From: an uncultured Acidimicrobiaceae bacterium
Lineage (GTDB): Bacteria; Actinomycetota; Acidimicrobiia; Acidimicrobiales; RAAP-2
Direction: 5' to 3'
Assembly: GCA_963783245.1 (NCBI GenBank)
Contig: CAWAMS010000008.1
Coordinates: 32,817 to 96,816 of the forward strand
Length of the DNA: 64,000 nt
Shown here: piece after piece, positions 5,576 to 59,026 of the stretch
How positions within the stretch are numbered: position 1 is the stretch's first letter
How the letters are laid out: the number at the start of each line of letters is the position of its first letter
The notes under the pieces: generated by a model
What the model was told of the DNA's origin: nothing
What the model saw: only the letters and a program-made list of their open reading frames with translations
Databases searched by the model: none
Translations under genes and position numbers: made by a program

Positions 5576-5742
5576 GCCGAGGGCCGGAGGCGGCTGGCCC
5601 ACTTTCCGTGCCCACGCAACCTAGATTTCACCCCGCTGTTGGCGCGCGAGGATACGGGAAAGGTCTACGAGGACCTGTTGCTGGGCCGTATCGAGCCTGG
5701 GCGTGACACACGAGATCGCGAACATAAGGAGAGAAGAGAACC

Positions 5743-6654: not shown

Positions 6655-6696
6655 CGTGACGGTCAGCGGCAGCCTTCGGGCTGACCGGGACGTCTG

Positions 6697-7108
6697 ATGG
6701 CCCGACCGCACGCCATATCGAGTACCAGTTCCGCGGTGGCTCGGATCCGGGCCATCTGCCTCGCGTTGCCTGAGGCGACCGAGAAGCCGTTCGGCGGCCA
6801 CACGTCCCCGGCCTTCCGGGTGCGGGACAAGATGTTCGTCGTCGTTGCCGAAGATCAAGACGTCGATCACCCTGAAGGCTCCCAAGGGCGTCCAGGGGAT
6901 TCTGGTGCACTCCGACCCGGAGCGGTTCTTCGTGCCCAAGTACGTCGGGAGCAAGGGATGGGTCGGGGTGCGACTCGACCTGGCCCGTCCGCCGGACTGG
7001 GAGGAGATGGCCGAGATCATCTACGAGAGCTACTGCCTCCTGGCCCCGGCCCGACTGGTGCGGCAGCTGGAGGCCGACCTCGATGCGGGTAACTGGGTGC
7101 CCGGGTGA
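6697..7108 (+). CDS. MmcQ/YjbR-family (DUF419) protein; one +1 frame break near 6850
   Basis: ICLALPEATEKPFGGHTSPAFRVRDKMFVVV (frame 1) continues as SITLKAPKGVQGILVHSDPERFFVPKYVGSKGWVGVRLD (frame 2). Span is 3n+1. Confidence 0.6.
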
Positions 7109-7354
7109 CCGAGTGACCGGATCTGGGCGTCGCCAGGAGCCCTGAAGGCCTGATCCGAAGGCCCAGGCCAGGCACGATGGAGGGGCCGGATCCGGATTTT
7201 TCGCCGTCGATCTCCGTTTGAGCAGCGCAGCGCGCTATTGTTGTCGTTGAGGGCACCACCATTACAGATTTGGAAATCCCTCTGGCTCGCGAGAGTCACC
7301 GGCCATGACCCCCGACAAGGGGTCAAATCTGGCCAGGGAAGGAGTGGATTTTCA

Positions 7355-7559
7355 ATGGCAACTGGTTCCGTGAAGTGGTTTAACGGTGAGAAGGGCTTCG
7401 GCTTCATCACTCAGGACGGTGGCGGCCCCGACGTATTCGTGCATTTCGAGCGCGATCTCCGGTACGGGGTACCGCAACCTCGAAGAAGGACAGAAGGTTG
7501 AGTTCGAGACCAACCAAGGCCCCAAGGGGCTGCAGGCCGCAAACGTGCGCGCCATCTGA
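7355..7559 (+). CDS. Cold-shock protein (CspA family); single inserted base at ~7448
   Basis: RBS GGAAGGAG precedes the start. [31 protein letters not shown] is followed, after 'cat ttc G agc gcg', by [36 protein letters not shown]. Span is 205 nt (3n+1). Confidence 0.9.
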
Positions 7560-7594
7560 TCCCGACGAGCCGACGAGATCGGCCGACAGAACAG

Positions 7595-7649
7595 CCAGAA
7601 ATCAGGGCCCTCTCTCCATTAGCGAGCGGGGGCCCTGTCTGGTTTCTGG
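7595..7649. terminator. Imperfect hairpin between convergent csp and cysQ (possible bidirectional terminator)
   Basis: The arms ccagaaa(t)cagggccc and gggccctg(tctgg)tttctgg flank a ~19-nt loop. There is no clear U-tract. Confidence 0.35.
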
Positions 7650-7654
7650 GGCGG

Positions 7655-8437
7655 TCAGTAGTAGGGGCGGTAGTCCCGGGTGGTGACGCCCAGCACGGCT
7701 TCGGCCAGCTCAGGTCGGCAGACCATGAGATCGGGCAACCACGCATCCGGGGCCCCGTAGCGCAGCGGTTCCCCATTCAGCCGAGATGCGTGCAACCCAC
7801 TCGCCTCCGCCACCGCCACCGGTGCACACGAGTCCCACTCGTACTGTCCCCCGGCGTGGATGTAGACGTCGGCGAGGCCCATGATCACGGCGCCGATTTT
7901 GGCGCCGGCCGAGCCCATGGGGATCATCGTGCCGCCGATCGCTTCCGCCACCTCGTACGCCACCTCGGGCGGTCGGCTCCGGCTGACGACGACCCGGGGC
8001 GGGGCGCTGGCGTCGAACGGCGCCAGCTCGAGGGGGGCGCCCGTGGACAGGGTCACGTCTATGGCCGGCAGCGCCACGGCACCGACAACGGCCACACCGC
8101 TTACCGCCATTGCCACGTGGACGGCCCAGTCCGGCCGCCCGGGCTGGCCGAACTCACGGGTGCCGTCCAGAGGGTCGATGATCCAGAGCCGTCCGTTACC
8201 CGAGACGTGCTCGAGCCCCTCCTCCGACCGCACATCGTCGTCCGGGTAAAGGCGATTCAGCTCTTTGACGAGGAGATGGTGGGCCAGCCGATCTCCGGCC
8301 GCACCCACGCCTCTGCCGGCGGACGGCCCATCTCTCAACTCCAGCAAGGCCCGACCCGCCATGGTCGCCAGGGCAGCCGCGTCACGGTGCTCGGCTGTGA
8401 GATCCACGACTCCCCTTTCCCGCTCTTGGACGTCCAA
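7655..8437 (-). CDS. cysQ: 3'(2'),5'-bisphosphate nucleotidase CysQ (IMPase family)
   Basis: Intact ORF. Motifs: WIIDPLDGTREF, GSAGAKIGAV, GGQYEWDSCAP, LPDLMVCRPE. Close by eye to mycobacterial CysQ. The start is either TTG 8437 or GTG 8407. Confidence 0.85.
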   Translation of the reverse strand: MDVQERERGVVDLTAEHRDAAALATMAGRALLELRDGPSAGRGVGAAGDRLAHHLLVKELNRLYPDDDVRSEEGLEHVSGNGRLWIIDPLDGTREFGQPGRPDWAVHVAMAVSGVAVVGAVALPAIDVTLSTGAPLELAPFDASAPPRVVVSRSRPPEVAYEVAEAIGGTMIPMGSAGAKIGAVIMGLADVYIHAGGQYEWDSCAPVAVAEASGLHASRLNGEPLRYGAPDAWLPDLMVCRPELAEAVLGVTTRDYRPYY

Positions 8438-8469
8438 TGTCTAGCCGCCACGTGACCACGCGGCGGCCG

Positions 8470-9127
8470 TCAGACGAGTCGGCGGTCGGTGGCCCAGCGG
8501 GTCAGCTCGTGACGGGTCGAGAGCTGGAGCTTGCGCAGGACGGACGAGACGTGTGACTCGACCGTCTTGGCCGAGATGGTCAGGTCCCGTGCCACCTCTT
8601 TGTAGGTGTAACCCCGGGCGATGAGGCGCAGGACTTCGCGCTCCCGGGGCGAGAGTTGGTCGAGCTCGGGGTCGAGGCCTCGCCCCGGTCCCTGCGCCGA
8701 TGGATCCTTGCGCGAAGGCATCGAGGACGAAGCCGGCCAAGCGCGGCGAGAAGACGGCATCACCGGCTGCGACCCGGTAGACCGCCTGCAACAGTTCGCC
8801 GCCGGAAATGGTCTTGGTGATATAGCCGCGGGCTCCGGCACGGATGACTGCGATGACATCCTCGGGCGCGTCGGAGACGGAGAGGGCGAGAAACTGCACC
8901 TCAGGATGGTGGGGCAGGACGCCGTGGAGGACGGCTTGACCGCCGCCGCCGGGGAGATGGACATCGAGGAGGACGACGTCGGGGAGGCGCTCGCCGATCA
9001 GCTCGATGGCCGCTGCCACCTCGTCCGCCTCGCCGACGACCTCGACGGCGTCCCCGAGCTCGGCCCGCACGCCGGCCCGGAAGACCGCATGGTCCTCGAC
9101 GAGGAAGATCCTCGGTCGGTCGCTCAT
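8470..9127 (-). CDS. NarL/LuxR-family response regulator; one +1 frame break near 8712
   Basis: ATG 9127 overlaps the kinase stop (ATGA). The receiver reads RIFLVEDHAVFRAG...DVVLLDVHLPGGGG. After FVLDAF the LuxR HTH continues in another frame (LSPREREVLRLIARGYTYKEVARDLTISAKTVESHVSSVLRKL). Span is 3n+1. Confidence 0.85.
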
Positions 9128-10320
9128 CGGGGCATCGACAGCTCGACCTCGGTCCCTTCGCCGGGTGCTGATCGGATGGTCACGGCGCCACCGTAGCGAG
9201 CCATCCGAGCCTTGATGGACTGCGCGATGCCCTGGCGATCGGGGGGAACGCTCTCTGGGTCGAAACCCTGGCCACGGTCCCGTACGTACAGCATGACGGC
9301 GTGGGGCTCGACCTCGGCGTAGAGCGAGACCTGGGCGGCGCCGGACCATTTGGCGGCGTTGACCGTGGCTTCTCGGGCCGCATCGAGGAGGGCGCGGAGG
9401 CCCTCGGTGAGCTCGCAGTCGCCGACCAGCACGACCTGGACCGTGATCCCGTGATCGGCCTCTACGTGGCGCTGGAGCAGCCCGACCCCTTCGGCCAGCA
9501 TCGTGGCATCCTCGCTGATCGTCCCGGGCGCCTTCCCCTCGAAGAGCCAGGCCCGGAGCTCCCGCTCCTGGGCCCTCGCCAGGCGGACCACGTTCTGGGG
9601 ATCGTCTGACGACCGCTGGATCAGAGCGAGCGTCTGGAGCACCGAGTCGTGGACGTGCGCCGCCATCTGCGACCGCTCCTCGGCCATCGCCCGCGCTTCT
9701 CGCTCCGACATCAGGTCGCGGACGAGGCTCAGCCACCATGGGCCGAAGATCACCACGATGGCGGCGATGACCAGCAGGGCGCCGCTGAGCGGCCGCAGCG
9801 CGGCGGTGCTCGGGTGGCCCAGGATCAGGACCACGATGCCGCCCGCCGCCAGGAGCGCGCCTGCGCCGACGCGCAGGACCAGCTTCCAGTGCCGCCCACC
9901 CTCGCTCCCGACGCTGAGCATCGGGACGAGGTCGTCGTTCATCCAGACGCGTTCTGCCTCACTGGCGTTGCGCCAGATCAGGATGGTCAGGCCGACGGCC
10001 AGGAAGACCGGCCAGCTGATGATCCCGACGAAACCGATGTGGAGCGCCGAGACGACGACCTGCGTGACGATGACGATCGGGATGACGGCGATGACCAGGC
10101 GGATACCGCGCCGGTCGTTGATCGCTCTCGAGAAGATGTTGGTCGACTCGCCCTCGAGGGGGACGATGAGCCACGCCAACGCGTAGACGAGTACGGGGAC
10201 GCCGCTGGCCAACCCGACGAGGACGAAGCCGATCCGCACGATCGTGACGTCGATGCCCGTGGCCTGGGAGAACCCACCGCAGTTGCCCGCCAGGACTCTT
10301 GCGTCTGACGAGCGGCGCAT
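9124..10320 (-). CDS. PspC-domain sensor histidine kinase (HisKA_3 type)
   Basis: ATG 10320. PspC N-terminus RRSSDARVLAGNCGGFSQATGIDVTIVRIGFVL, several TM segments, H-box MAAHVHDSVLQTLALI, ATPase motif VRDRGQGFDP. Confidence 0.85.
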   Translation of the reverse strand: MRRSSDARVLAGNCGGFSQATGIDVTIVRIGFVLVGLASGVPVLVYALAWLIVPLEGESTNIFSRAINDRRGIRLVIAVIPIVIVTQVVVSALHIGFVGIISWPVFLAVGLTILIWRNASEAERVWMNDDLVPMLSVGSEGGRHWKLVLRVGAGALLAAGGIVVLILGHPSTAALRPLSGALLVIAAIVVIFGPWWLSLVRDLMSEREARAMAEERSQMAAHVHDSVLQTLALIQRSSDDPQNVVRLARAQERELRAWLFEGKAPGTISEDATMLAEGVGLLQRHVEADHGITVQVVLVGDCELTEGLRALLDAAREATVNAAKWSGAAQVSLYAEVEPHAVMLYVRDRGQGFDPESVPPDRQGIAQSIKARMARYGGAVTIRSAPGEGTEVELSMPR

Positions 10321-10753
10321 GTCCCGCAGGTGATGATGGCGGGGGCGGCCGCCGTGGGGACGCCACCCGTGGGACCACGACGGCGATGGTGGTCCTGTCG
10401 TCTGGGAGCAGGCCTGAGCCTGCATCGGGAACTGGCCGTGATCCGTCGGCCGTGCCCGGTGGGCGTGCCGCCAGGAGGCCGGGCGGCCGTCGCCCTGCGA
10501 AGGCTCGGTCGTGACGCCTTCCTGCGGGCGCGTGGCGGGATCGGTTGACTCGGGGATACCACGATGATCGCGCGCCCGGCACTCGACGACCATCAGGGAA
10601 ATCCCTGAGTGCGGAGGGTGGGAGTCAGGGTACGACCCGGGTCATGCCGGATGTCGTTCCGGCCGCCGCTCGCTCAGGCTGGAGGCATGACTACTCCATC
10701 TGCATCGCACGAAGACCCGGGTTCCGTGGCCGGCCACGGCACCACCGAAGGCG

Positions 10754-11074
10754 GTGACACGTCCCGAATTGGGAGCCTCCACCTTGACGGCACCCCCGTC
10801 AGACGCGTCGGAATCGGCGGCCGAGGCGTCGGGCTCGGGCTCGTCTGACAGCTTGCGCCGGGGAGGACCGGATCGAATGCTCGCCGGCGTCGCCGTCGGA
10901 CTGGCCGACTACTTCGACATCGACCCAACCCTGGTCCGTGTCGGATTCGTCGCCCTTTCCCTCCTGGGCGGACTGGCCGTCCCGCTGTACCTGGCCGGAT
11001 GGCTCCTCATCCCCGAGCAAGGTGCCGAGCAATCGGTGGCCGAGGAGCTGTTGGCCCGTGAACGAATCCGCTGA
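10754..11074 (+). CDS. PspC-domain membrane protein
   Basis: LRRGGPDRMLAGVAVGLADYFDIDPTLVRVGFVALSLLGGLAVPLYLAGWLLIP. The start is uncertain: GTG 10754, or an upstream start if another frame break is present. Confidence 0.65.
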   Translation: MTRPELGASTLTAPPSDASESAAEASGSGSSDSLRRGGPDRMLAGVAVGLADYFDIDPTLVRVGFVALSLLGGLAVPLYLAGWLLIPEQGAEQSVAEELLARERIR

Positions 11075-11141
11075 CCGGCCCCGTCGATCGATCGACGCCG
11101 ACATCGAGTACCTGCTGAGCCATTTCCACCCGAAAGGACAC

Positions 11142-11561
11142 ATGATGCGCCTTCGCCCCGATGCTGCCCGCTGGACCTCGCCGGCCTCCACTGCCAACCT
11201 GCGCGTGTCGGACGCCGAGCGCAACGAGGTGGCCGACAAGCTGTCACGGCATTTCTCCGATGGCCGGCTGGACCAGACCGAGTTCAAAGAACGCCTCGAC
11301 GCTGCGATGTCCGCCAAAACACAGGGCGATCTGGTCGGTCTCTTCGACGACCTGCCGTCTCTGGCCGACGAACCACCGCCACCTCCGTCACGCCGTCGAC
11401 GTCTGGTCCCCTTCCTCGTCATGATCGCCTTCATCGCCATCGTCGCCGGCTCGACCGTCTCGCTGTGGCACGCGTTCCGGATCCCGTGGCTCCTCGTGGC
11501 CGTGATCGCCTTCTTCCTCTGGCACCGGGCTGGAGCCAGGCATCACCACACGACGGACTGA
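11142..11561 (+). CDS. DUF1707-domain membrane protein
   Basis: RBS GAAAGGA precedes ATG 11142. Motif LRVSDAERNEVADKLSRHFSDGRLDQTEFKERLDAAMSAKTQGDL, plus two C-terminal TM segments. Confidence 0.7.
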   Translation: MMRLRPDAARWTSPASTANLRVSDAERNEVADKLSRHFSDGRLDQTEFKERLDAAMSAKTQGDLVGLFDDLPSLADEPPPPPSRRRRLVPFLVMIAFIAIVAGSTVSLWHAFRIPWLLVAVIAFFLWHRAGARHHHTTD

Positions 11562-11743
11562 AGCGGTTGGGAAATCCACAGGCAGGGTGCCACTCGGTCG
11601 CCCGACGCCAGTGAGTAGCATGGCCATCGCTCGCCACCCCTGACCTGGTGATCTACGCACCGTACCGGGACAGCTAGCGTCGAGTCCAGCGCTGGAACCA
11701 CAGCCGCCCCCAGCCCCAGTGAAACCTCAGGAGAGATTCATTT

Positions 11744-13954
11744 ATGCGCACCCTGGCCGGGTGGTGTGTCAATCACCGCCGTCTCGTGCTCCTCATCTGG
11801 GCAATTGTCCTTGTCGTGTCCCTGGGACTGTCGAACGCGATCGGGACCGCCTACTCGAACTCGTTCAACTTCCCGAAGACCGAGTCGTTCGACGCCATCA
11901 AGCTTCTGCAGGCGTCCGCCCCCAAGGACTCGGGCGACACCGAGCAGATCGTCTTCGCCACGTCCGGCGGGGCGAAGGTGACCGACCCCGACGTGATGGC
12001 GAGCATCAACGAGATGATCGGCAAGATCGAGCAGCTCCCCCACGTCGGCCGGGTGGTGAGCCCGTACACTCCCCAGGGGGCGACCCAGATCAGCGCCGAC
12101 AAGACCGTGGCGTTCATCCCCGTCACGCTGAACCGCCAGCAGAACTTGCTGACCGAGTCCGAGGGTAAGCAGTTCGTCGCCACAGCCAAGACGGCCGACG
12201 GACCGAACCTCCAGGTGGCGGTCTCGGGTCAGTTGGCCGAATTGACCAACCCGCAGTCCTTCAGCGGGACGGGGGTGGGCGTGCTCCTGGCCTTCATCGT
12301 CCTGATCCTTGTCTTCGGATCGTTCTTCGCAGCCATACTTCCCATCGTCTCCGCGCTCTTTGCGCTGGGCACGGCCATCGGCGTCATCGGCATGCTCACC
12401 CATGTCCTCAAGATGCCGTCGATCTCCCCGATTCTGGTGCTCCTCATCGGGTTGGGAGTGGGCGTCGACTATGCGCTGTTCATCGTCACCCGTCACCGCC
12501 AAGGCCTGGTCGCCGGGCAGACGATCGAGTCATCGATCATCAACGCGGTCAACACGTCGGGCCGGGCCGTCATGTTCGCCGGGATCATCGTCTGTATCGC
12601 CCTTCTCGGCATGTTCGCCCTGGGTGTCAGCTTCCTCTACGGCCTCGCCGTGTCGGCGGCGATCGGGGTGCTCTTCACCATGATCTCGGCCCTCACCTTG
12701 CTCCCGGCGATGTTGGGCTTCATCGGCCCCAAGGTCATGAGCCGCAAGCAGAAGCGCGGACTGGTGGAGAACGGCCCGCGCATCGTCGGGGTCGGCACCA
12801 CCGGCTTCTGGCCCCGCTGGGCCGACCGGATCCAGCGCCGTCCGGCGTTTTCGGCCGCGGCGGCGTTGCTCGTCATCGTGGTGATCGCCCTCCCGTTCTT
12901 CTCCTTACGGCTCGGCTCAACCGACCAGGGCAGCGACCCGACCGGGACCACGACGCGCACGGCTTACAACCTGTTGGCCAAGGGATTCGGACCCGGTTTC
13001 AACGGCCCGCTCCAACTGGTCTCCGTCGTTTCGACGCCGGCGCAAAAGGACGTCATCGAAAACGTCGCCGACGAGGTGCGCAAGCAGTCAGACGTGGCGA
13101 CGGTGGCCGATCCGGTCTACATCCCCAGCAAAACGGGCGACGGCTCCGAAGTGGCGTTGATCAGCGTCTTCCCGAAAACGGCGCCACAGGACGCGGCGAC
13201 GACCGATCTCATCTACCACTTGCGCGGTGACACGATCCCTATGGTCGTCGGCGATAGCGGAGTGAAGATCCTGGTCGGTGGCGACACCGCCATCTTCGTC
13301 GACTTCGCGCACGTGCTGTCTTCCAAACTTCCGCTCTTCATCGCCCTGGTGGTGATCCTGTCCTTCATTCTGCTGGCGATCGTGTTCCGAAGTTTCGTGA
13401 TCCCGCTGACGGCCGCCGCCATGAACCTGCTCTCCATCGGTGCGGCATTTGGCATCCTGGTGGCGGTGTACCAGTGGGGGGACGTCGACAGGCTGTTCGG
13501 CATCGATCGCACCGGACCGGTCGAGTCGTTCATTCCGGTGTTGCTGTTCGCGATCCTCTTCGGGCTGTCCATGGACTACCAGGTCTTCCTGGTCAGCCGT
13601 ATGCACGAGGAGTACCTCAAGTCGGGCGACAACCGGACCGCCGTTCGCAACGGCCTCGCCGCCACCGGTAAGACCATCACCGCGGCGGCGTTGATCATGA
13701 TCCTGGTCTTCGCTTCGTTCGTTCTCGGCGGTCAGGCCGTGATCAAGGAGTTCGGGATCGGTTTGGCCGGAGGCGTCCTCGTCGATGCGGTCTTGATCCG
13801 CATGGCCGTGGTCCCTTCACTGATGATGCTGCTGGGCAAGGCCAACTGGTGGTTCCCGAAGAGCCTGGACCGGATCCTGCCCCGGCTGTCGGTCGAGGCG
13901 AAGGACCTCGAAGCGCTCCCGACAGTCACGGTGCCGGACGCCGAACTCGTCTGA
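11744..13954 (+). CDS. MMPL-family (RND superfamily) transporter
   Basis: Intact 736-aa ORF with RBS AGGAGAG. It has a duplicated 6-TM architecture. Motifs: GVGVDYALFIVTRHR and GLSMDYQVFLVSRMHEE. Confidence 0.9.
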   Translation: MRTLAGWCVNHRRLVLLIWAIVLVVSLGLSNAIGTAYSNSFNFPKTESFDAIKLLQASAPKDSGDTEQIVFATSGGAKVTDPDVMASINEMIGKIEQLPHVGRVVSPYTPQGATQISADKTVAFIPVTLNRQQNLLTESEGKQFVATAKTADGPNLQVAVSGQLAELTNPQSFSGTGVGVLLAFIVLILVFGSFFAAILPIVSALFALGTAIGVIGMLTHVLKMPSISPILVLLIGLGVGVDYALFIVTRHRQGLVAGQTIESSIINAVNTSGRAVMFAGIIVCIALLGMFALGVSFLYGLAVSAAIGVLFTMISALTLLPAMLGFIGPKVMSRKQKRGLVENGPRIVGVGTTGFWPRWADRIQRRPAFSAAAALLVIVVIALPFFSLRLGSTDQGSDPTGTTTRTAYNLLAKGFGPGFNGPLQLVSVVSTPAQKDVIENVADEVRKQSDVATVADPVYIPSKTGDGSEVALISVFPKTAPQDAATTDLIYHLRGDTIPMVVGDSGVKILVGGDTAIFVDFAHVLSSKLPLFIALVVILSFILLAIVFRSFVIPLTAAAMNLLSIGAAFGILVAVYQWGDVDRLFGIDRTGPVESFIPVLLFAILFGLSMDYQVFLVSRMHEEYLKSGDNRTAVRNGLAATGKTITAAALIMILVFASFVLGGQAVIKEFGIGLAGGVLVDAVLIRMAVVPSLMMLLGKANWWFPKSLDRILPRLSVEAKDLEALPTVTVPDAELV

Positions 13955-15050: not shown

Positions 15051-15150
15051 GGTCCGGCACGGTGGCCGGCCCCCGAACTAGCGTCCGTTTTGCCCCGACC
15101 ACTACGGTGGCGAGGTAACTCCTGTCCGGACGTCCGACGTGAGGGGGAAG

Positions 15151-15549
15151 ATGGCTGCGCAAATTCCGCTGGTCGATTATCTGGTGCTCGGGGATTCCCC
15201 TCACCTCGTGGCGAACGAGTGCACCTCGTGCGGTGCCCGCTTCTTCGACCGCCGCAATGCCTGCGCCAACTGCGGCAAGACCGAATTCACCAAGGCCGAT
15301 ATCGCCACCAACGGCGAGGTGCGGGCCTTCACCATCGTGACCTTCGCCGCCCCCGGGGTACCTGTCCCCTACGTCGCTGCCGTGGTCGACTGCGACGGGA
15401 CGAGCGTCCGGGGCAACCTGATCAACGTCGATCCCGATCCTGAGCACGTCGCCCTCGGAATGAAGGTCCGACTGGCCACGTTGGGACTAGGCATCGACGA
15501 CAACGGTACCGAGGCAATCGGGTTCGGCTTCGAACCCCTGGGAGGTTGA
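15151..15549 (+). CDS. DUF35 Zn-ribbon / OB-fold protein (thiolase-associated)
   Basis: RBS GAGGGGGA precedes ATG 15151. Motifs: [19 protein letters not shown] (CxxC...CxxC), then an OB-fold-like [22 protein letters not shown]. Confidence 0.85.
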
Positions 15550-15554
15550 GCATC

Positions 15555-16758
15555 ATGGCAAGTGACGACGTCTGGATCCTGGGCATTCACATGACCAAGT
15601 TCGGCAAGCACCCCGACAAGGATCTCACCGACCTCTCCTCCGAAGCGGTGCTGGGCGCACTCGCCGACGGCGGCGTGACGATGAAGGACATGGGCGTCAT
15701 CGGGGCGGGCAACCTCCTCGGTGGTGGCGGCGGTGCGGGGCAGGCGCTGCAGAAGCAGCTCGGTCAGACCGGCATTCCCGTCTACAACGTCTCCAACGCC
15801 TGTGCGACGGGCGCCACGGCCCTGCGGGTGGCCGTGATGGCGATCAAGGCCGGGGAATGTGACATGGGCCTGGCCTTCGGGGTCGAGAAGCTGTCAGGGG
15901 CGGGGCTCCTGGCCGGTGGAACGCGCAAAGAGGACGACGGAACGTGGACCCCGTCGGGTCGCTACGGTGCGGTGGCGGCGGTCGACGGCCGCATCGGCAC
16001 CGAGATCATGCCAGGCGTCTTCGCACAGATCGGCATGGAATACGGTCACAAGTACGGCGGCACCAGCTTCGAGCTCTTCGCCAAAATCAGCGAGAAGAAT
16101 CACGCCCACTCCACCCTCAACCCGCTTGGCGGCGTACACCAAGCGGATGAGCCTGGAGGAGATTATGGGCGACGTGATGATCGCCTATCCCAACACGCGC
16201 CCGATGTGCTCGGCCAACTGCGACGGTGCGGCGGCGGCGGTCGTCGTGAGCGGGTCCAAGCTCAAGACGTTGTCCTTGGAACAGCAGAAGCGGGCCGTGA
16301 AGATTTCGGCCTCGATCCTGACCACCGACCCGTGGGAGGAGGCGTGCCAGATCCTCCCCGACGTCAACACGTTGACGCGCAATGCGGTCACGCAGGCCTA
16401 CGAACAGGCGGGCGTCGGGCCATCGGATCTCGATCTCGTGGAGTTGCACGACTGCTTCGCCACGGCCGAGTTGGTGCACTACGACAACCTCATGTTGTGC
16501 GAACAGGGTGGTGCGGTGGACTTCTTCAACTCGGGCGCCACGTGGCGGGACGGCACCACGCCGGTCAACGTCTCGGGAGGCCTCGAGTCAAAGGGCCACC
16601 CGATCGCAGCGACGGGGATCGCCAACGTGTGGGAAGTGGCCACGCACCTGCGTGGCGAGGCGGGCGATCGCCAGATCGCCGGCGCCAAGGTTGGTATGAC
16701 CCACGTCATCGGATTGGGATCCGCCTGTGGGATTCACATTTTGGAGAGGGCGGCCTAG
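15555..16758 (+). CDS. SCP-x / nonspecific lipid-transfer-type thiolase; one +1 frame break at ~16124
   Basis: RBS GGAGG precedes the start. [27 protein letters not shown] (Cys). After ...HSTLNP the sequence continues in frame 1 ([36 protein letters not shown]...[14 protein letters not shown]...GLGSACG). Span is 3n+1. Confidence 0.85.
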
Positions 16759-16763
16759 CCGGC

Positions 16764-17853
16764 ATGGCTTCGACGGTGCGCGGCGTGGTGGCACGGGCCA
16801 AGGGTGCGCCGGTCACGCTCGAGGAGATTGTCGTCCCGGACCCCGGGCCGGGTGAAGCCGTGGTGGCGGTGAAGGCGTGCGGCGTATGCCACACGGATCT
16901 GCACTACCGCGAGGGAGGGATCAACGACGAGTTTCCCTTCTTGCTCGGGCACGAGGCGGCAGGGATCGTCGACGCGGTCGGGCCGGGCGTGACGTCGGTG
17001 GCGCCGGGGGATTTCGTCGTTCTGAACTGGCGGGCGGTGTGCGGCGAGTGCCGGGCGTGTCGCCGCGGCCGGCCGTGGTACTGCTTCGCCACGCACAACG
17101 CGACGCAGAAGATGACTTTGACGGACGGGACGCCACTCTCGCCCGCGCTGGGCATCGGCGCGTTTGCGGAGAAGACGTTGGTGGCCGCCGGGCAATGCAC
17201 CAAGGTCGACCCGTCGGCGCGGCCCGAGGCGGTCGGACTGCTCGGGTGCGGCGTGATGGCGGGGATCGGGTCGGCCATGTTCACCGGCGCCGTGGGGCTG
17301 GGCGACTCGGTCGCGGTCTTCGGCTGCGGTGGCGTTGGGTGCGCGGCCATCGCGGGGGCGAAGCTGGCCGGGGCGACCACCATCATCGCCATAGATCTCG
17401 ATGCGAGGAAGCTCGAACAGGCGAAGCAGTTCGGCGCAACCGATGTCGTCGACGCCAGCGTCGGTGGATCCCGTGGCGGCGGTGCAGGGATTGACGGGTG
17501 GGAATGGGGCGGACGTCTGTATCGAGGCGGTCGGGAATCCGAAGGTGATGGAACAGGCGTTTTACGCTCGGGACCTCGCCGGGACGCTCGTGCAGGTGGG
17601 GGTGCCGACTCCCGAGATGCGCATCGACCTCCCCATGATCGAGTTCTTCGGCCGGGGCGGCGCGCTCAAGCCGAGCTGGTACGGCGACTGCCTGCCCGAT
17701 CGGGACTTCCCCAAGTTGGTCGACTTGTATCTGGCCGGGCGCCTCGATCTGGACCTCTTCGTCAGCGAGACCATCGCCCTCGATCAAGTGGAAGAGGCGT
17801 TCCACCGGATGCAGCGGGGCGAGGTCCTGCGCTCCGTCGTCGTTCTGGGATAG
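16764..17853 (+). CDS. Zn-dependent class III alcohol dehydrogenase, S-(hydroxymethyl)mycothiol dehydrogenase-like; one +1 frame break near 17460
   Basis: Motifs: [61 protein letters not shown]. The C-terminus lies in frame 1 ([34 protein letters not shown]...[10 protein letters not shown]). Very similar by eye to mycobacterial MscR/AdhE2. Confidence 0.85.
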
Positions 17854-50768: not shown

Positions 50769-51998
50769 CTAGCGCGCGTCCTCCAGCGGGTTGCGCCAGC
50801 CGGGGGATCCGGTGTGGCCGCCCGCCGAGACACGGAGCCCGATGAAGTTCCGCTGGGCCTCCACGGTGCCCGCGCCGAAGCACAGGCCGCGGATATCGCG
50901 GTAGGCCCGCTCCAGCGGGTACTCCCGGCTGAAGCCGTACCCGCCGTGGATCTGCATGGCCTCGTCACAGACGAACTTGGCCGCCAGGTTGGCGGCCGTC
51001 TTGGCCAGGGCCGTCTCGAGGGGCGGCGGGGTCCCACCCTCGCCGGCCAGACGCACGGCACGCCCCAACAGCAGACGGGCGCCCTCCAGCTGCACGGCCA
51101 TGTCCGCCAGCTTCCACTGCAGGCCCTGGAGGTCGGCCAGCGGTCGCCCGCCGATCACCCGCTCCTGCATGTAGCGCACGGCGTGCTCCATGGCGCCCTG
51201 GGCGGCCCCGACGCACATGGCGGCATTCCCGCACCGTTCGTGGTTCAGATGCGACAGGAGCACCTTGAAGGCACTCGTCGACGACGGGTCGCCCGCCAGC
51301 AGGATGTCCTCTTCCCGGATCTCCACGCCGTCGAAAGCCAGCTCGGCCTCCGTCGCGGCATGGATCCCCATCCCCTTGTGGCGGCCGGTGACCGAGACTC
51401 CTTCGCGATCGGTCGGCACGATCACCGCGCCGATGCCCTTCGCCCCCTCGCCGCCGGGCCAGCGGCACCAGACCAGCACACCCTGGGCCACGTGGCCCAG
51501 GGTGGAGTAGTTCTTGTAGGCGTTGAGACGCCAGCGACCGGGACCGTCCTCGGTGAGGGCGGCCCGCATGTTCTGGACCGCCGAACCGGCGTCGGGCTCG
51601 GTGATGCCGATGCTGACGATGGCGTCGCCGTCCGCAGCAGCGGGGAGCCAGCGCTCCTTCATGGCCTCGGGCCCGAGATGCTCGATGCCCCGGGGCGGCC
51701 CGTTGAAGGTCAGCTGGCAGCAGATGGCGGACGAGACGTCGGCCCGGGCAATCTCCTCGAGGACGATGGAGGCCTCGACGTCCCCCAGGCCCATGCCCCC
51801 GTACTTCTCCCCGATCGTGATCCGGAGGAGGTCGGCGCTCGCCAATGCCTTGCGCACTTCGGGCGGGATCTCACCGGTCTCGTCACCTTGTGAGGCCCGG
51901 GGCGCCACCTCTCGCAGAGCCACGTCGCGCGCCAGCTGGCGCAGCGCCGTCTGATCCTCTGTCTCGGCCAGGAGATCGACGCCCGAGGCCCCGCTCAT
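50769..51998 (-). CDS. Acyl-CoA dehydrogenase
   Basis: ATG 51998 overlaps the thiolase stop (TGATG). Motifs: GITEPDAGSA, QIHGGYGFSREYPLERAYRD. Confidence 0.85.
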   Translation of the reverse strand: MSGASGVDLLAETEDQTALRQLARDVALREVAPRASQGDETGEIPPEVRKALASADLLRITIGEKYGGMGLGDVEASIVLEEIARADVSSAICCQLTFNGPPRGIEHLGPEAMKERWLPAAADGDAIVSIGITEPDAGSAVQNMRAALTEDGPGRWRLNAYKNYSTLGHVAQGVLVWCRWPGGEGAKGIGAVIVPTDREGVSVTGRHKGMGIHAATEAELAFDGVEIREEDILLAGDPSSTSAFKVLLSHLNHERCGNAAMCVGAAQGAMEHAVRYMQERVIGGRPLADLQGLQWKLADMAVQLEGARLLLGRAVRLAGEGGTPPPLETALAKTAANLAAKFVCDEAMQIHGGYGFSREYPLERAYRDIRGLCFGAGTVEAQRNFIGLRVSAGGHTGSPGWRNPLEDAR

Positions 51999-53201
51999 CA
52001 GTCGCCGAGCTCGCTGCCGACGATCCCCACGAAGCTCACGCACTCGCCGGGAGCGCCGCCCAGGTTGTGGGTCAGGCCGAGCGTCCGGCCCTGGCTCACC
52101 GTGGCGATCTGGCGGTCGGCCGGAGCCTCACCACGCAGCTGCAGCCAGCACTCGAAGAGCATCCGGAGCCCCGAGGCGCCGATGGGGTGCCCGAAGCTCT
52201 TGAGCCCACCGTCGGGGTTGACCGGCAGCTCACCGTCGCGGTCGAACGTGCCCGCCAGCACCTCTTTCCATGCCGTGCCCCGGGTGGCGAACCCCATGTC
52301 CTCCATGAGGACCAGCTCGGTCGGCGTGAAGCAGTCGTGCACTTCGGCCATGGCCAGCTGGGCCCGGGGATCGGTGATCCCGGCCTGCTGGTAGGCGTCC
52401 TCGGCCGAGCGCACCACTTCGGGGAAGGTGGTGTAGTCGTAGCCCGGGATCGATCGGTCCCGCGGCGGGCCCGGCCACGAAGCTGAGGGCCTTCACGTAC
52501 AGAGGGTTGGCGCAGTACTTGTGGGCGTCCTCGACCCGGCAGATGATGGCCGCCGCCGCACCGTCGCTCACACCGCTGCAGTCGAACACACCGAGCTCCC
52601 CGGCCACCAGCGGCGCCTTGGAGATGGTCTCCATGGAGATCTCCTTTTGGAACTGCGCCCTTGGGTTGCGTGCTCCGTTCTGGTGGTTCTTGAAGGCGAT
52701 CCGGCTCATGACTTCCTTCATCTCGGACTTGTCCACGCCGTACTTGTGGCCGTAGGAGGGAGCCAGGAAGGAGAAGGCGGCGGGCGAGGAGAGGCCGGGG
52801 TCCGTCCCGTCCCCGACGGCGCGGATGCCGGTCAGGCCCGAGTAGCCGGTGTCCTTGAGCTTCTCGACCCCGATGGCCATGGCGGTGTCGTAGGCACCCG
52901 AGGCCACGGCGTAGCAGGCATTGCGGAAGGCCTCCGAGCCGGTGGCGCAGAAGTTCTCGACCCGGGTCACCGGCTTGTAGTCGAGCTTGAGCGGGCGCGA
53001 GAGCGTGATGCCCGACACCGAGGAGGTCATGGTCCCCAGCCAGAACGCGTCGATGTCGTGGATCGGCAACCCGGCCGAGGTCGACGCCTCGACGGCGGCA
53101 TCGGTCAGGAGATCGTCGATCCCCTTGTCCCACAACTCGCCGAATTTGGTGCAGCCCATCCCGATGATGGCCACACGGTCGCGGATACCTCTGCTCGCCA
53201 T
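51998..53201 (-). CDS. SCP-x / lipid-transfer-type thiolase; one +1 frame break near 52445
   Basis: RBS AGAGGAG precedes the start. VAIIGMGCTKFGE, ENFCATGSEAF (Cys). It continues in another frame: EVVRSAEDAYQQAGI...AEVHDCFT...GGLKSFGHPIGASG. Span is 3n+1. Confidence 0.85.
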
Positions 53202-53204
53202 GGT

Positions 53205-54668
53205 CTACTCCTCTGTGCTTGTTGCCGGTTCGGGCACCGCAGGGGCACCCTGTAGGGGACGGGCCTTCCAGAAATAATTGTGCACGCCGAGCGCGGTGTA
53301 GATGCGTCGGAACGTCATTTCGACCCGGCCGCCGATCGCGATCTCGGGCACGCTGACGTCCGTCATCTCACACCGGTAGCGCCCGCCGCCGTCGAAGTCG
53401 ACGATGACGCCCACCACGGGCGGCGAGAGGCTGTAGGCGAGGTGGTCAACCGTGAACGTCGCGATGGTCCCCCGCACATCGGCCAGCCGCTCAGGCTGCA
53501 TCTGGTCGATGGAGTGGCACTCGAGGCAGACCCGGGTCGGCGGTAGATGACGGAACCCACACACTTGACAACGGCTGGCGGCGAAGGCGTATTTCCAGGC
53601 CTCCGAGCGGTGCACGATCGGTGCCCCCGGGCGCTCGGGATCGGGGCGCCGCGGCGGCTCACGGTGCAACTGGCCCCGCCAGGCCAAGAAGGCCGCGTAG
53701 GACAGATCGTCCCGGCCCGCCGCCACCTGCTCGGCCACGCTCGGCACTTCGGCGGCACGCCGGGCGGCCTGGGCCGCCGGGAGGGCGTCGGTCGTGCGCA
53801 GGACCAGGGCGTCGGCGCCGTCCGCCAGGGAGAGCACCACAATGAGCTGGCCCGGAAGGGCACGCTCGAGCACGTCCGCCAGGGCCACCCCGGCCTGGGC
53901 GGCGCCGAGGTTGCCGATCGACGCCAGGAGGTCGGGGGCGATGGCGCCGGCCGGCACCCCGAGCCGGCCCGTCACGGCCTTGACCGCCCGCAGGTGCAGC
54001 CCCGTCACGATGGCGTGATCGATGTCGCTCTCGGTGGCGCCGGCGTCCTTGAGGGCATCGGCAAAGGCCTCGCGGGCCAGCGGGACGTACATCTCCTCGC
54101 CGAAGCGCTCCTCCCAGACGTGGGAGTCGGTTTCCCCGGGAACCCGCCAGCGATCGAGGAACTCGTCACTGGCCGAACCCCGCCCGACCAGTTCGGCCAC
54201 TGCGCCGTCGGCGCCGCACAGGAAGGCGGCGGCGCCGTCCCCGGCGTCGCGCTCTTCGGCCCCGCCGGCCAAGCCGGTCCGGAGATCGGCGGAGATGGCC
54301 AGCGTCCGGCGCCAGGGCGCCGCCTGCAGCGCCATCAGCAGCGTGCCCAGAGCCGAGCGCGGCGCGCCGGAGAAGTCGTAGGCCGCAGCGGACCGGTCGA
54401 GCCCGAGCGCCGCGTGCAGGGTGGTGGCGCTGGTCTTGTCGAGGTAGCCGGGCGCCGGCGTGGAGAACAGCAGGTCGTCGGGCAGGGCTGGGCGCAACGC
54501 CAGGGCCCGCCGGCCCGCCTCGACGCCCAGGGTGGTGGTGTCCTCGTCATACGAGGCCACGGCACGGGTGCCCTTGGGAGGTCCCGAGCCCAGCACCTGC
54601 GCGATGGCTGAGCGCTGCAGCCGCCAGTACGGCAGGTAGGTCCCCCATGTCACGATCCCAGCGTTCAT
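53205..54668 (-). CDS. HMG-CoA-synthase-like domain fused to a C-terminal DUF35 (Zn-ribbon + OB-fold) module
   Basis: ATG 54668. HMGCS-like blocks: ASYDEDTTTLGVEAG, LAISADLRTGLAGGAEERDAGDGAAAFL, DEFLDRWRVPGE, SIGNLGAAQAG. DUF35 module: CQVCGFRHLPPTRVCLECHS...PPVVGVIVDFDGGGRY. Confidence 0.75.
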   Translation of the reverse strand: MNAGIVTWGTYLPYWRLQRSAIAQVLGSGPPKGTRAVASYDEDTTTLGVEAGRRALALRPALPDDLLFSTPAPGYLDKTSATTLHAALGLDRSAAAYDFSGAPRSALGTLLMALQAAPWRRTLAISADLRTGLAGGAEERDAGDGAAAFLCGADGAVAELVGRGSASDEFLDRWRVPGETDSHVWEERFGEEMYVPLAREAFADALKDAGATESDIDHAIVTGLHLRAVKAVTGRLGVPAGAIAPDLLASIGNLGAAQAGVALADVLERALPGQLIVVLSLADGADALVLRTTDALPAAQAARRAAEVPSVAEQVAAGRDDLSYAAFLAWRGQLHREPPRRPDPERPGAPIVHRSEAWKYAFAASRCQVCGFRHLPPTRVCLECHSIDQMQPERLADVRGTIATFTVDHLAYSLSPPVVGVIVDFDGGGRYRCEMTDVSVPEIAIGGRVEMTFRRIYTALGVHNYFWKARPLQGAPAVPEPATSTEE

Positions 54669-54847: not shown

Positions 54848-55588
54848 CTACGCCGTCGCCTCCACCACCATCACCCAGCTGTCGATCTCGAGGGCCCCGC
54901 CCCCGCCCGCCGAGCACCGCACGTCGCTGAATCCGGCTCCTTCCAGCCACCGCGTCCACTCGGGCGGGGTGGGGAGCCTGATGTAGTGCGAGGTGCGCCG
55001 GACCTCGCCCCCTCGATACACGGTGCGATCCGTCACCATCCGCCCCGTCAGCGGGTCGAAGCGGGAGACGTCGACCTGCGCGTCGTCACCCCGCCACTCG
55101 ACGGTCGCGTCGGGCGCCCCCGTGTAGTGACGGACCACGCCGTCGTGATGCATGGTCTCGATCAGCACGGTGCCACCGGGACGCAGGACCCGGTGGAACT
55201 CGGCCAGGACCCGCCGGCAGTCGTCATCGTCGTGATAGCCGAAGGAGGTGAACCAGCACACGACGGCGTCAAAGGGACCCGACACGGGCAACTGGCGCAT
55301 GTCGCCCCGGTGGTAGGCGACGCGGCTTCCCGGCCCGACCGGCTCGGCTTCGGCCAGGGCGATGAACTGCGTGGAGCGGTCGACCCCGGTCACGTCGTAG
55401 CCGGCGGAGGCGAGGCGGCGCGAGATCCGGCCAAGGCCACAGGGCACATCGAGGATGCGGGACCCCGGAGGCAGACCCAGCCGTCCCACGATCTCCGCCG
55501 TGTCCTTGTCCGAATAGCCGTCGTCGGTGAACTCGGCGTAGAAGTACAGGTAGTCGTCCCCGAAGGTGGCATCGACGTCGAAGTCCAT
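54848..55588 (-). CDS. Class I SAM-dependent methyltransferase
   Basis: Intact ORF. Motif I ILDVPCGLGR; also FDAVVCWFTSFGY and LRPGG. Confidence 0.8.
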   Translation of the reverse strand: MDFDVDATFGDDYLYFYAEFTDDGYSDKDTAEIVGRLGLPPGSRILDVPCGLGRISRRLASAGYDVTGVDRSTQFIALAEAEPVGPGSRVAYHRGDMRQLPVSGPFDAVVCWFTSFGYHDDDDCRRVLAEFHRVLRPGGTVLIETMHHDGVVRHYTGAPDATVEWRGDDAQVDVSRFDPLTGRMVTDRTVYRGGEVRRTSHYIRLPTPPEWTRWLEGAGFSDVRCSAGGGGALEIDSWVMVVEATA

Positions 55589-56563: not shown

Positions 56564-56962
56564 TCAGCGGACCACCACCCGCACCTGCCAGAGCAGGAGG
56601 AACTGCGGGCACGGCCGTCCCGACGCGCACGTGGGCGCACCGCCGGCGGTCAGTGTCGTGTGGCCGGCTTTGACCGCGGTGTAGAAGGCCGAGATCCCAC
56701 CGGCGCGGTACACGATCTTTCCGGAACGCCGAAGGAGGACGGGCCCGACTTGGCGCAACCCGCTCCATCGCAGCTCTGTCCCACCCAACGCCACCTTCAG
56801 GACCTGCCCCACCCGCACGTGCACGGTGCGGCCCCCGTCGGCCCGGTCGACGCACACCGTCCGACCGTGCGCAGGGCACCCTCCGCTGGTCATCGCCGGC
56901 GCCGCCTGCGCGTGTGGCGTCCCCAAGGCCACGATCGCGAGCACCAGGAGGACGAGCCTCAA
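56564..56962 (-). CDS. Small secreted Cys-containing hypothetical protein
   Basis: TTG 56962 overlaps the FadD stop (TTGA). Signal peptide (M)RLVLLVLAIVALGTPHAQA|AP; four Cys. No recognisable family. Confidence 0.45.
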   Translation of the reverse strand: MRLVLLVLAIVALGTPHAQAAPAMTSGGCPAHGRTVCVDRADGGRTVHVRVGQVLKVALGGTELRWSGLRQVGPVLLRRSGKIVYRAGGISAFYTAVKAGHTTLTAGGAPTCASGRPCPQFLLLWQVRVVVR

Positions 56963-58485
56963 TCGGCGACGACCGCCAATTGCGCGCGCAGGTCCGCCTT
57001 GACCACCTTGCCGGTCGGATTGCGCGGGAGCTCCTCGACGAAGAGGAACCGGCGCGGCACTTTGTAGTCCGCCAGTTGGTCGAGCGCGTGGGCGCGCAGG
57101 GCATCGCCGTCCACATCGCTGCCCTCGTGCACGACGACGAAGGCCACCACGTCCTCGCCCAACACCGCATGGGGTGCGCCGACGACGGCGACCTCGGCCA
57201 CCGCCTGGTGCTGCACCAGCACGTGCTCCACGTCGGTCGCGTAAATGTTGTTCCCGCCCCGGATGATCACGTCCTTGCTCCGGCCGACGATGTAGAGATA
57301 CCCCTCGTCGTCCAGCTTCCCCAGATCGCCCGTGACGATCCATCCGTCCTTCCACATTTCCGCCGTCGCCTCGGGATCCCCGAAGTACTCGCGTTGACGT
57401 CCGGGGAGTTGCATCCGGACCTCACCGACCTCGTTGGGCGGGACCGGCTCCTCGTTGACGTCCACGATGCGTACCACCGCCGGCGGGTTGATGCGTCCCA
57501 CCGAACCGGGATGCTTGGTCGCCTCCCCTTTGGGCATGGTGCAGTAGGCCGAGCCGGCCTCGGTCATGCCGTAATTGTTCGACACCATCGCGTCAGGCAT
57601 CCGCTCCTGCAACCGTTCGACCACGAACGGCGCCAGGGGCGCGCTCCCGATGGAACAGATCGAGACCGACGAAAGGTCCGCGGTCTCGAAGTGGGGATGG
57701 TCGAGGAGAAGGTGGGCCATGGCCGGGACGAGGAAGACCGCCACCGGACGCTCGGTCTCCACCTCCTTCAGCCATCGACCGGCGTCGAACTTGGGCATGT
57801 AGATCCCGCGCAGCCCGAGCTTCATGGGCGTGTAGACGAACGCAATGCCGGCGAAGGTGAACATGGGGCTGGCGTGCATCCAGCCGCCGCCGCTCCACGA
57901 AGGAGGCACGTCGCCGATCATCGAACCGTTGGAGTGACGAATGGCGACACCTTTCGGTCGTCCTGTCGTCCCCGAGGTGTACAAGATGTCCGCCAGGTCG
58001 TCGTCATCGCGCGGCACCTGCATGGCGTCGCGCGACCCCGAGGTGATGTCGCCCCAGCTCATCACCTGACCCGACGACCGAGCGGTGGCCCCGGAGGTGG
58101 CGTCGACCACCAGCGAGAGGCCCCCGTTCGCGGCACCGAGCGCCGTCGCGATCAGGGCGCCGTCGGCGACGACAACCGTGGCGCCGGAGTGCGCCAGCAT
58201 GCGCCCCACCTCCGCCGGGGCCAAACGGGGATTCATGGGGACGGCGACGCCCCCGGCCCGATGTGCCGCCGTGTAGGACACCAGCCAGCGCAAGGCCGAC
58301 TCGGCGTGCAGATGGAGACCGACCCTGTCTCCCGGCTTGAGTCCCCCCGCCACCAGGCCCCGGGCCATGGCATTCGCCATGCCGTCCCACTCCGCGAAGG
58401 TCAGCGCACCGACATCGACGACCGTGTAGGCCGTCTCGTCGGGGAACGTCTCGGCCATACGGCGTAGGTGTTCGTCGATCAACAC
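56959..58485 (-). CDS. Acyl-CoA synthetase / AMP-dependent ligase (FadD type)
   Basis: GTG 58485 follows GGGGAG. Motifs: YTSGTTGRPKG, YGMTEAG, GWIVTGDLG, IIRGGNNI, PRNPTGKV. Confidence 0.85.
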   Translation of the reverse strand: MLIDEHLRRMAETFPDETAYTVVDVGALTFAEWDGMANAMARGLVAGGLKPGDRVGLHLHAESALRWLVSYTAAHRAGGVAVPMNPRLAPAEVGRMLAHSGATVVVADGALIATALGAANGGLSLVVDATSGATARSSGQVMSWGDITSGSRDAMQVPRDDDDLADILYTSGTTGRPKGVAIRHSNGSMIGDVPPSWSGGGWMHASPMFTFAGIAFVYTPMKLGLRGIYMPKFDAGRWLKEVETERPVAVFLVPAMAHLLLDHPHFETADLSSVSICSIGSAPLAPFVVERLQERMPDAMVSNNYGMTEAGSAYCTMPKGEATKHPGSVGRINPPAVVRIVDVNEEPVPPNEVGEVRMQLPGRQREYFGDPEATAEMWKDGWIVTGDLGKLDDEGYLYIVGRSKDVIIRGGNNIYATDVEHVLVQHQAVAEVAVVGAPHAVLGEDVVAFVVVHEGSDVDGDALRAHALDQLADYKVPRRFLFVEELPRNPTGKVVKADLRAQLAVVAD

Positions 58486-58618
58486 GTTGCAACTCCCCGG
58501 GTGGTCCTCCCGCCAGCCGAAAATTGACGCCGGCAGCAGGTTCGTTGCAGCATGGCCGATGCCCGGGCGGGGGTCAATCTCGAACGTGCCGTCGGGCGCA
58601 ACCAAGGGGCAGGCACAG

Positions 58619-59026
58619 ATGACCACGGTTCGCTTCGACCTCCCGACTCCCGAAGGCGACACCATCGAGTTCTGGGAGGCGGCCAAGGAGGAACGGCTGC
58701 TCATTCGCCATTGCGCCGCGTGCGGTGCCTATTCCTATTACCCGCGGCCGTTCTGCCCGAAATGCTGGAGTGAGGACGTCGAGTGGGCCGAGGCCAGTGG
58801 GAAGGGCACGCTCTACACCTGGTCGGTGATCTACAGCAACGACATGCCACCTTTCAAGGATCGGGTGCCCTATGTCGCCGCCATCGTGGACCTGGCCGAG
58901 GGTCCCCGCATGACGACGAACGTCGTCGAGTGTCCTTTCGACGAGCTCGAGGTGGGCATGGCGCTGCAGGTCGTCTTCCGCCCGATCTCCGAGGACTTCA
59001 CCATCCCGGTCTTCGTCCGGGCCTGA
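58619..59026 (+). CDS. DUF35 Zn-ribbon / OB-fold protein (no adjacent thiolase)
   Basis: ATG 58619. Motifs: CAACGAYSYYPRPFCPKCWS, VPYVAAIVDLAEGPRMTTNVV. Confidence 0.8.
   Translation: MTTVRFDLPTPEGDTIEFWEAAKEERLLIRHCAACGAYSYYPRPFCPKCWSEDVEWAEASGKGTLYTWSVIYSNDMPPFKDRVPYVAAIVDLAEGPRMTTNVVECPFDELEVGMALQVVFRPISEDFTIPVFVRA

Follow-up and report, generated by a model that had tools for sequence, protein, structure and literature searches.

Two adjoining minus-strand genes in a stretch of 64,000 nucleotides from an uncultured Acidimicrobiaceae bacterium (hereafter the window; positions 32,817 to 96,816 of contig CAWAMS010000008.1, assembly GCA_963783245.1) probably encode the two subunits of a bacterial ACAT/HMGS-DUF35-type thiolase complex with a degradative role. 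We put the probability of this reading at about 0.7. The product of the first gene joins a domain resembling 3-hydroxy-3-methylglutaryl-coenzyme A (HMG-CoA) synthase (HMGS) to a DUF35 module and would be the non-catalytic partner, and the product of the second is a thiolase with intact active site motifs. The pair and the gene behind it comprise the following features.

53205..54668, minus strand: HMGS-like::DUF35 fusion gene, with ATG at 54668 and stop codon TAG at 53207-53205, encoding 487 amino acids (open reading frame listing).
53649..54668, minus strand: HMG-CoA-synthase-like thiolase-fold domain of the fusion, residues 1 to about 340.
53205..53648, minus strand: linker and DUF35 module of the fusion, residues 341-487 (Pfam PF12172 and PF01796).
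51998..53201, minus strand: SCP-x/archaeal-type thiolase gene with a +1 frameshift inside; the open reading frames are split and the repaired product has 400 amino acids.
52442..52442, minus strand: extra C (G on the plus strand), at which the frame is lost between ...GPIDPG and YDYTTFPEVV... (DNA alignment with the relative L001).
50769..51998, minus strand: acyl-CoA dehydrogenase (ACAD), 409 amino acids, with all four ACAD domains in Pfam.

The fusion is a single open reading frame of 487 residues that carries the Pfam domains ACP_syn_III_C (PF08541), zf-ChsH2 (PF12172) and OB_ChsH2_C (PF01796); the last two, a zinc ribbon and an OB fold of the ChsH2 type, make up the DUF35 module. The zinc ribbon spans approximately residues 362-386 and presents Cys367, Cys370, Cys381 and Cys384, each at least 90% conserved, while the OB fold covers residues 397-454 in the Pfam match and extends to about residue 471 in the AlphaFold2 (AF2) model. 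The NCBIfam HMG-CoA synthase model NF003274 covers the fusion from end to end but scores only 142 bits (cutoff 244), and the second HMG-CoA synthase model of the NF003274/TIGR00748 pair scores 90 bits against 353. With both scores under the curated cutoffs and the Glu/Cys/His triad absent, the fusion falls outside the HMG-CoA synthase family. Among sequences in the PDB the best match is PhlA (2e-19), followed by the archaeal HMG-CoA synthase 6esq_I (2e-16), and the DUF35 part matches chains 6esq_E and PhlB 9skh_E. The AF2 single-chain model, built with 34 diverse homologues, is confident throughout (predicted local distance difference test score 93.1, predicted template modeling [TM] score 0.93). 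Foldseek aligns it to the archaeal HMG-CoA synthase of 6esq with a TM-score of 0.89 (root-mean-square deviation 1.9 Å), to PhlA with 0.85 and to MucA with 0.84, all normalised to the target.

The catalytic tetrad of archaeal HMGS consists of E82, C114, H238 and N270, numbered on 6esq_I as in Liao et al. (Nat Commun 2026, PMC12960953), with positions counted along the chain in the HMMER alignment. In that alignment E82 falls on Pro71 of the fusion, C114 on Gly101, H238 on Thr222 and N270 on Asn253. MAFFT places C114 on Pro103, two residues past the HMMER position. The choice of register is immaterial, because no Cys occurs in that column in any of 95 full-length relatives (31-51% identical to the fusion); the three columns on either side hold 0-3 Cys each. 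Among the same relatives the Glu column contains Thr, Ala or Ser and never Glu (0/95), and the His column contains Ser, Ala, Tyr or Thr and never His (0/95). The tetrad Asn is present in the window fusion, yet just 28 of the 95 relatives retain it. The loss of Glu, Cys and His from the window fusion and from all 95 relatives marks the whole family, as judged from these alignments, as catalytically dead for HMG-CoA synthesis.

The dead HMGS-like domain is nevertheless under strong purifying selection. Compared with the near relative L002, its ratio of nonsynonymous to synonymous substitution rates (dN/dS) is 0.063, and that of the DUF35 part is 0.043. For the HMGS-like domain the ratio rises to 0.17-0.21 in relatives about 75% identical and to 0.35 for L017, which is 66% identical in that domain. 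Residues Asp98, Asp128, Arg130, Glu139, Asp144 and Trp174 of the fusion are at least 90% conserved.

The thiolase gene starts after a 3-nucleotide gap, with its ATG at 53201, and its TGA overlaps the ATG of the ACAD gene (51998) by 1 nucleotide (TGATG at 52000-51996). The span from 53201 to 51998 measures 1204 nucleotides, a length not divisible by 3, and as encoded the thiolase is divided between two open reading frames that are out of frame with each other: 53201-52230, which ends in a nonsense stretch, and 52417-51998. DNA alignment with the 95%-identical relative L001 reveals a single extra C at 52442 (CCCGGGCTAC versus CCCGGG-TAC). When this base is removed, a thiolase of 400 residues is obtained, 397 of which are identical to the L001 thiolase. 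The repaired protein contains Cys85 (NFCATGS), His288-Asp-Cys-Phe291 (the HDxF motif) and Gly-His338-Pro (GHP), and Cys85, His288, Asp289, Phe291 and His338 are retained in 74/74 partner thiolases of the related loci. Its top PDB match is the thiolase of the archaeal complex, 6esq_A (4e-59); SCP2-type thiolases and BbsB follow, with PhlC far behind (~1e-21). The repaired thiolase passes NCBIfam model NF004810 (PRK06157 acetyl-CoA acetyltransferase) with 590.9 bits against a cutoff of 403, compared with 348 and 229 bits for the two fragments as encoded.

The extra C is probably an assembly error, because dN/dS in the thiolase part past the frameshift is 0.04 and at least two further frame breaks occur in the window, in the genes listed here.

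15546-16758, plus strand: second SCP-x-type thiolase (open reading frame translations only), with a break near 16127-16129.
16764-17853, plus strand: Zn-dependent alcohol dehydrogenase (MASTVRGVV...), with a break near 17459-17467.

The second thiolase is read in the frame of 15546 towards its N terminus and in that of open reading frame 15859-16758 towards its C terminus (...HSTLNPL, then AAYTKRMS...). The alcohol dehydrogenase leaves its frame after ...GATDVVDAS and goes on in the frame of open reading frame 17401-17853; this third single-base frame break suggests an indel-prone assembly. The nearest relative also has split genes; it bears the isolate prefix MFD, which we take to denote a series of long-read metagenome-assembled genomes (MAGs). 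A frame-plot scan of GC content at third codon positions recovered the three known frameshifts, and its other candidates are inseparable from ordinary gene junctions. An 80-residue deletion in the thiolase of L003 (93% identical) was considered as a second lesion and rejected, as the gap corresponds to a run of N at L003 7193-7240.

An earlier note on this DNA, made by reading the letters and the open reading frame translations, had already described most of these features. The 487-residue fusion on the minus strand agrees with the open reading frame and with the Pfam and NCBIfam domains, the gap and the overlap between the three genes lie where it placed them, and all the peptide strings it quoted are present. 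Its reading that the catalytic Cys and Glu are lost is borne out by the 6esq_I alignments and the 95 relatives, none of which leaves an intact Glu-Cys-His triad (Pro71 stands for Glu, and Gly101 or, in the register of the note, Pro103 for Cys); the His is lost as well (Thr222). The thiolase Cys that it reported as kept is indeed there. Its treatment of the thiolase as an intact gene does not hold, given the extra C and the 1204-nucleotide span, and the second SCP-x thiolase that it listed is present from 15546 but frameshifted near 16128.

A system of the same kind has been studied recently. The only publication on an HMGS-DUF35 fusion that we found is the 2026 paper, which counts 1,030 bacterial loci joining HMGS-like, ACAT and DUF35 domains, 1,001 of them without secondary-metabolism neighbours (PMC12960953). 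It describes PfACAT/HMGS-DUF35 of Pseudomonas fluorescens, in which a fused HMGS-DUF35 protein without the E-C-H-N tetrad accompanies an ACAT with Cys, HDxF and GHx motifs. This complex splits acetoacetyl-CoA by thiolysis but synthesises neither that compound nor HMG-CoA, and its activity is nearly abolished by H294Y, a substitution of the HDxF histidine; no such thiolysis was seen with SmaATase or PpATase (PMC12960953). The same study reports that an archaeal enzyme with a mutated tetrad forms no HMG-CoA, that the HMGS tetrad is missing from PhlA and MucA, and that their thiolase-like partners PhlC and MucB, which have lost HDxF, are Friedel-Crafts C-acetyltransferases; its authors view the P. 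fluorescens complex as an "evolutionary intermediate … not yet recruited" (PMC12960953).

The window pair resembles PfACAT/HMGS-DUF35 in having HMGS-like and DUF35 domains on one polypeptide, in the loss of the tetrad (with Asn kept), in an adjoining thiolase with Cys, HDxF and GHx motifs (after repair of the frameshift), and in the absence, in the loci examined, of polyketide synthase (PKS) or nonribosomal peptide synthetase (NRPS) neighbours. Since these are exactly the features of the P. fluorescens pair, we file the window pair as a member of that kind. It differs in belonging to Acidimicrobiaceae, another phylum, in retaining the tetrad Asn, and in being coupled to an ACAD of the isovaleryl-CoA dehydrogenase (IVD) type. 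The archaeal thiolase/HMGS/DUF35 complex (6esq) shares the three-module make-up and provides both the best fold match and the best thiolase match. There, however, the HMGS is active (E82/C114/H238/N270), the complex produces HMG-CoA for the mevalonate pathway and DUF35 is a separate chain, whereas the window fusion has a dead HMGS site and carries DUF35 on the same polypeptide.

PhlACB of Pseudomonas protegens (5M3K/5MG5) and MucABC of Streptococcus macacae (9VBO/9VBT) also contain a tetrad-less, non-catalytic HMGS-like subunit that partners a thiolase-fold catalytic subunit and DUF35, and PhlA is the top PDB sequence match of the fusion. These complexes have lost HDxF, acetylate phenolic or tetramic acceptors, and are encoded by separate genes in secondary-metabolite clusters with PKS or NRPS genes; the window thiolase has HDCF and its neighbours are catabolic. 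In BbsAB, Ltp2-ChsH2 (DUF35), Sal-Shy and Saci_1121/1120, an SCP-x-type thiolase-fold enzyme likewise needs DUF35, in acyl-CoA catabolism or synthesis, and DUF35 frequently shares its chain with a second domain, which in some cases is inert. The difference is that DUF35 is free-standing there or is carried on a MaoC hydratase domain, and not on an HMGS-like one.

The fusion family is large. Database searches return 7903 relatives at E ≤ 1e-5; the top 120 are 75-95% identical and 480-555 residues long (nearly all 480-510), and those among them with an NCBI name are Acidimicrobiales MAGs. With one representative per 50%-identity cluster, 3054 matches are obtained at E ≤ 1e-3 and 597 at E ≤ 1e-30, the best of which are mostly full-length fusions. 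A scan of one genome per species, with a 10-sequence alignment as the query, places the fusion in at least 584 species genomes. The best 80 of these loci come mainly from Acidimicrobiia, along with Streptomyces, Mycobacterium, Amycolatopsis, Rokubacteria, Methylomirabilia, Chloroflexota and a Burkholderiales MAG. More distant members occur in Effusibacillus, Falsibacillus, Bacillus, Aeribacillus and Desulfobacteraceae, and no Pseudomonas member was found among the loci or clusters examined. JGI labels the family "hydroxymethylglutaryl-CoA synthase" (entries P0002-P0120, P0238 and P0270), and NCBI "OB-fold domain-containing protein". With Glu, Cys and His absent in all members examined, the JGI label is a systematic misannotation.

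A thiolase gene follows directly downstream of the fusion on the same strand in 68 of the 71 loci with enough sequence. An orthologous ACAD (>60% identity) comes next in 27/62 loci, all of which have a fusion at least 61% identical to that of the window and represent its own Acidimicrobiaceae clade. Within approximately 5-6 kb of the pair, the 86 loci contain ACAD (47), acyl-CoA ligase (32) and short-chain dehydrogenase/reductase (SDR, 30) genes, and 10 contain a family III CoA-transferase or racemase. Loci L082, L084 and L086 (~4400-12700), two of which are from Bacillota genomes and whose fusions are 31-38% identical to the window fusion, carry a conserved operon of ligase, fusion, thiolase, ACAD, MaoC-N, MaoC-C, SDR and CoA_transf_3 genes, which makes up a full β-oxidation cycle; a sigma-54 PAS/CBS activator lies upstream of it in L084 and L086. 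One other member of the family neighbours 3-oxoacid CoA-transferase subunits and an HMG-CoA-lyase-like gene. No PKS or NRPS gene was noticed adjoining the pair in the loci examined, and the identified neighbours (ACAD, ligase, SDR and aldehyde dehydrogenase) belong to acyl-CoA catabolism.

The ACAD of the window offers a hint about the substrate. In an alignment to 3pfd, Ala376 occupies the position of the medium-chain ACAD base Glu376 (CFGAGT versus IYEGT), and Glu254 that of Thr255 (NHERC versus DHTRP). This is the established placement of the catalytic base in isovaleryl-CoA dehydrogenase and long-chain acyl-CoA dehydrogenase (LCAD). The combination of Glu at 254 with Ala or Gly at 376 is present in all 39 alignable ACADs near fusion-thiolase pairs, which comprise the 27 orthologues and 12 others at 23-30% identity (L029, L030, L039, L041, L045, L063, L064, L067, L074, L082, L084 and L086). 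A base of the IVD/LCAD type hints at branched or bulky substrates as a class, with no single compound singled out.

In the complex that we propose, the thiolase would be the sole catalyst, with Cys85 as the acyl-accepting nucleophile acting together with the HDxF histidine and GHP, and would cleave 3-ketoacyl-CoA with CoA. The HMGS-like domain, having lost Glu, Cys and His and being tethered to DUF35, would be indispensable as a structural partner. If the archaeal, Phl and Muc complexes are a guide, the fusion would contribute to assembly and solubility and probably form one wall of a shared chamber for CoA binding. In the clade of the window the pair would be co-transcribed with the IVD/LCAD-type ACAD, and the module would therefore most likely perform the opening and closing steps of a specialised β-oxidation route, possibly one acting on branched or bulky acyl-CoAs.

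The closeness of the fusion to PhlA raises the alternative that the complex is a C-acyltransferase of the Friedel-Crafts type, like PhlACB or MucABC, which would transfer acetyl groups to a non-CoA acceptor in specialised metabolism; PhlA and MucA, too, work without the HMGS tetrad and beside thiolase-like and DUF35 subunits. We regard this as very unlikely. HDxF, lost in PhlC and MucB, is kept in the window thiolase and in all 74 partners, and the window thiolase is far closer to the archaeal thiolase than to PhlC. Furthermore, the loci examined show catabolic neighbours in place of PKS or NRPS genes, and the P. fluorescens complex of like architecture cleaves acetoacetyl-CoA thiolytically (PMC12960953). 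An ordinary HMG-CoA synthase of the mevalonate pathway, as the JGI names have it and as the full-length NF003274 match might suggest, has next to no chance of being correct: the score lies well under the cutoff, the three catalytic residues are missing in all 95 relatives, and neither the tetrad-mutated archaeal enzyme nor the P. fluorescens complex yields HMG-CoA (PMC12960953).

The HMGS-like domain might also have acquired a new catalytic or substrate-delivery role, such as binding of acyl-CoA or a second substrate, hydration, or a lyase or decarboxylation reaction. The strong purifying selection (dN/dS of 0.06-0.2 against closer relatives and 0.35 against L017) would fit such a role, as would the residues conserved at 90% or more, two of which, Arg130 and Asp144, are not shared with HMGS and PhlA. 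However, most of the conserved residues recur in true HMGS and in PhlA, and their function is probably structural. PhlA and MucA reportedly take no part in catalysis themselves, and an obligate structural subunit would show constraint too; a non-inert domain seems unlikely on balance. The frameshift at 52442 admits another explanation, in which it is real, the thiolase is a pseudogene and the fusion protein is orphaned. A change of frame is indeed required in the 1204-nucleotide span of the window sequence. Decay of the module is quite unlikely all the same, as the repaired thiolase is identical to its nearest relative at 397 of 400 positions, dN/dS stays low past the shift, at least two other conserved genes have single-base breaks (the second thiolase at ~16128 and the alcohol dehydrogenase at ~17460), and genes of the closest relative are split as well.

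Several points weigh against our main reading. The sequence as given breaks the frame of the thiolase gene, and a genuine shift would mean that this organism has an inactive module. Kinship to the P. fluorescens protein is judged solely from architecture and motifs, and acetoacetyl-CoA is the only substrate with in vitro activity for this type of complex. Finally, several residues specific to the fusion family, Arg130 and Asp144 among them, are conserved at 90% or more, which leaves room for a residual ligand-binding or catalytic role.

The earlier note had interpreted the fusion as a non-catalytic scaffold tethered to DUF35, and this idea fits the solved PhlACB and MucABC complexes and the assayed P. 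fluorescens one, as well as the conservation and the nearly constant pairing of fusion and thiolase genes (68/71 loci). Its further suggestion that the fusion holds the thiolase next to the ACAD step finds no support: there is no sign of the ACAD being part of the complex, and an orthologous ACAD directly downstream is limited to the Acidimicrobiaceae clade (27/62 loci). The system can no longer be called uncharacterised, as the note had it, since the 2026 paper reports expression and assays of a fused HMGS-DUF35 lacking the tetrad together with an intact ACAT (PMC12960953). Overall, its observations are partly confirmed, being accurate apart from the missed frameshift, and its interpretation is partly supported.

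Further genes of the window lie around the module or share its domains.

54848..55588, minus strand: SAM (S-adenosylmethionine)-dependent methyltransferase, 180 nucleotides upstream of the fusion (Pfam Methyltransf_25).
15139-15549: DUF35 gene just upstream of the second thiolase (Pfam).
58619-59026, plus strand: free-standing DUF35 gene (Pfam).
56959-58704, minus strand: acyl-CoA ligase gene, divergent from the DUF35 gene at 58619-59026.

The order of methyltransferase and then fusion recurs in 19 loci, all of the close clade, and it is uncertain whether the methyltransferase belongs to the operon. Both DUF35 modules had been listed before and are confirmed by Pfam. The one at 58619-59026 has no adjoining thiolase, and its pairing with the ligase is kept in the closest relatives, L001-L003, L011 and L059.

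Compared with the published account (PMC12960953), the present analysis adds the occurrence in at least 584 species genomes, the linkage to a thiolase in 68/71 loci, the β-oxidation neighbours and the IVD-type ACADs. The label of an "evolutionary intermediate" suits this breadth, selection and catabolic context poorly, which is the one modestly new point made here. As a tentative extension, to which we give somewhat less than even odds, the pair could represent a widespread and overlooked bacterial β-oxidation thiolase complex of Actinomycetota, Bacillota, Desulfobacterota, Chloroflexota and Rokubacteria that works with IVD/LCAD-type ACADs on branched or bulky acyl-CoAs, its dead domain being kept as half of the CoA-binding chamber that the thiolase needs.

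The family is real, widespread and misannotated, and it is no longer unknown. The name "hydroxymethylglutaryl-CoA synthase" would wrongly imply a mevalonate pathway and may lead to false pathway calls. Its pairing with β-oxidation genes and IVD-type ACADs provides a testable physiological role, which the lone published member did not have, and its identity as a thiolase partner would mend pathway reconstructions for the abundant Acidimicrobiia of soil and freshwater.

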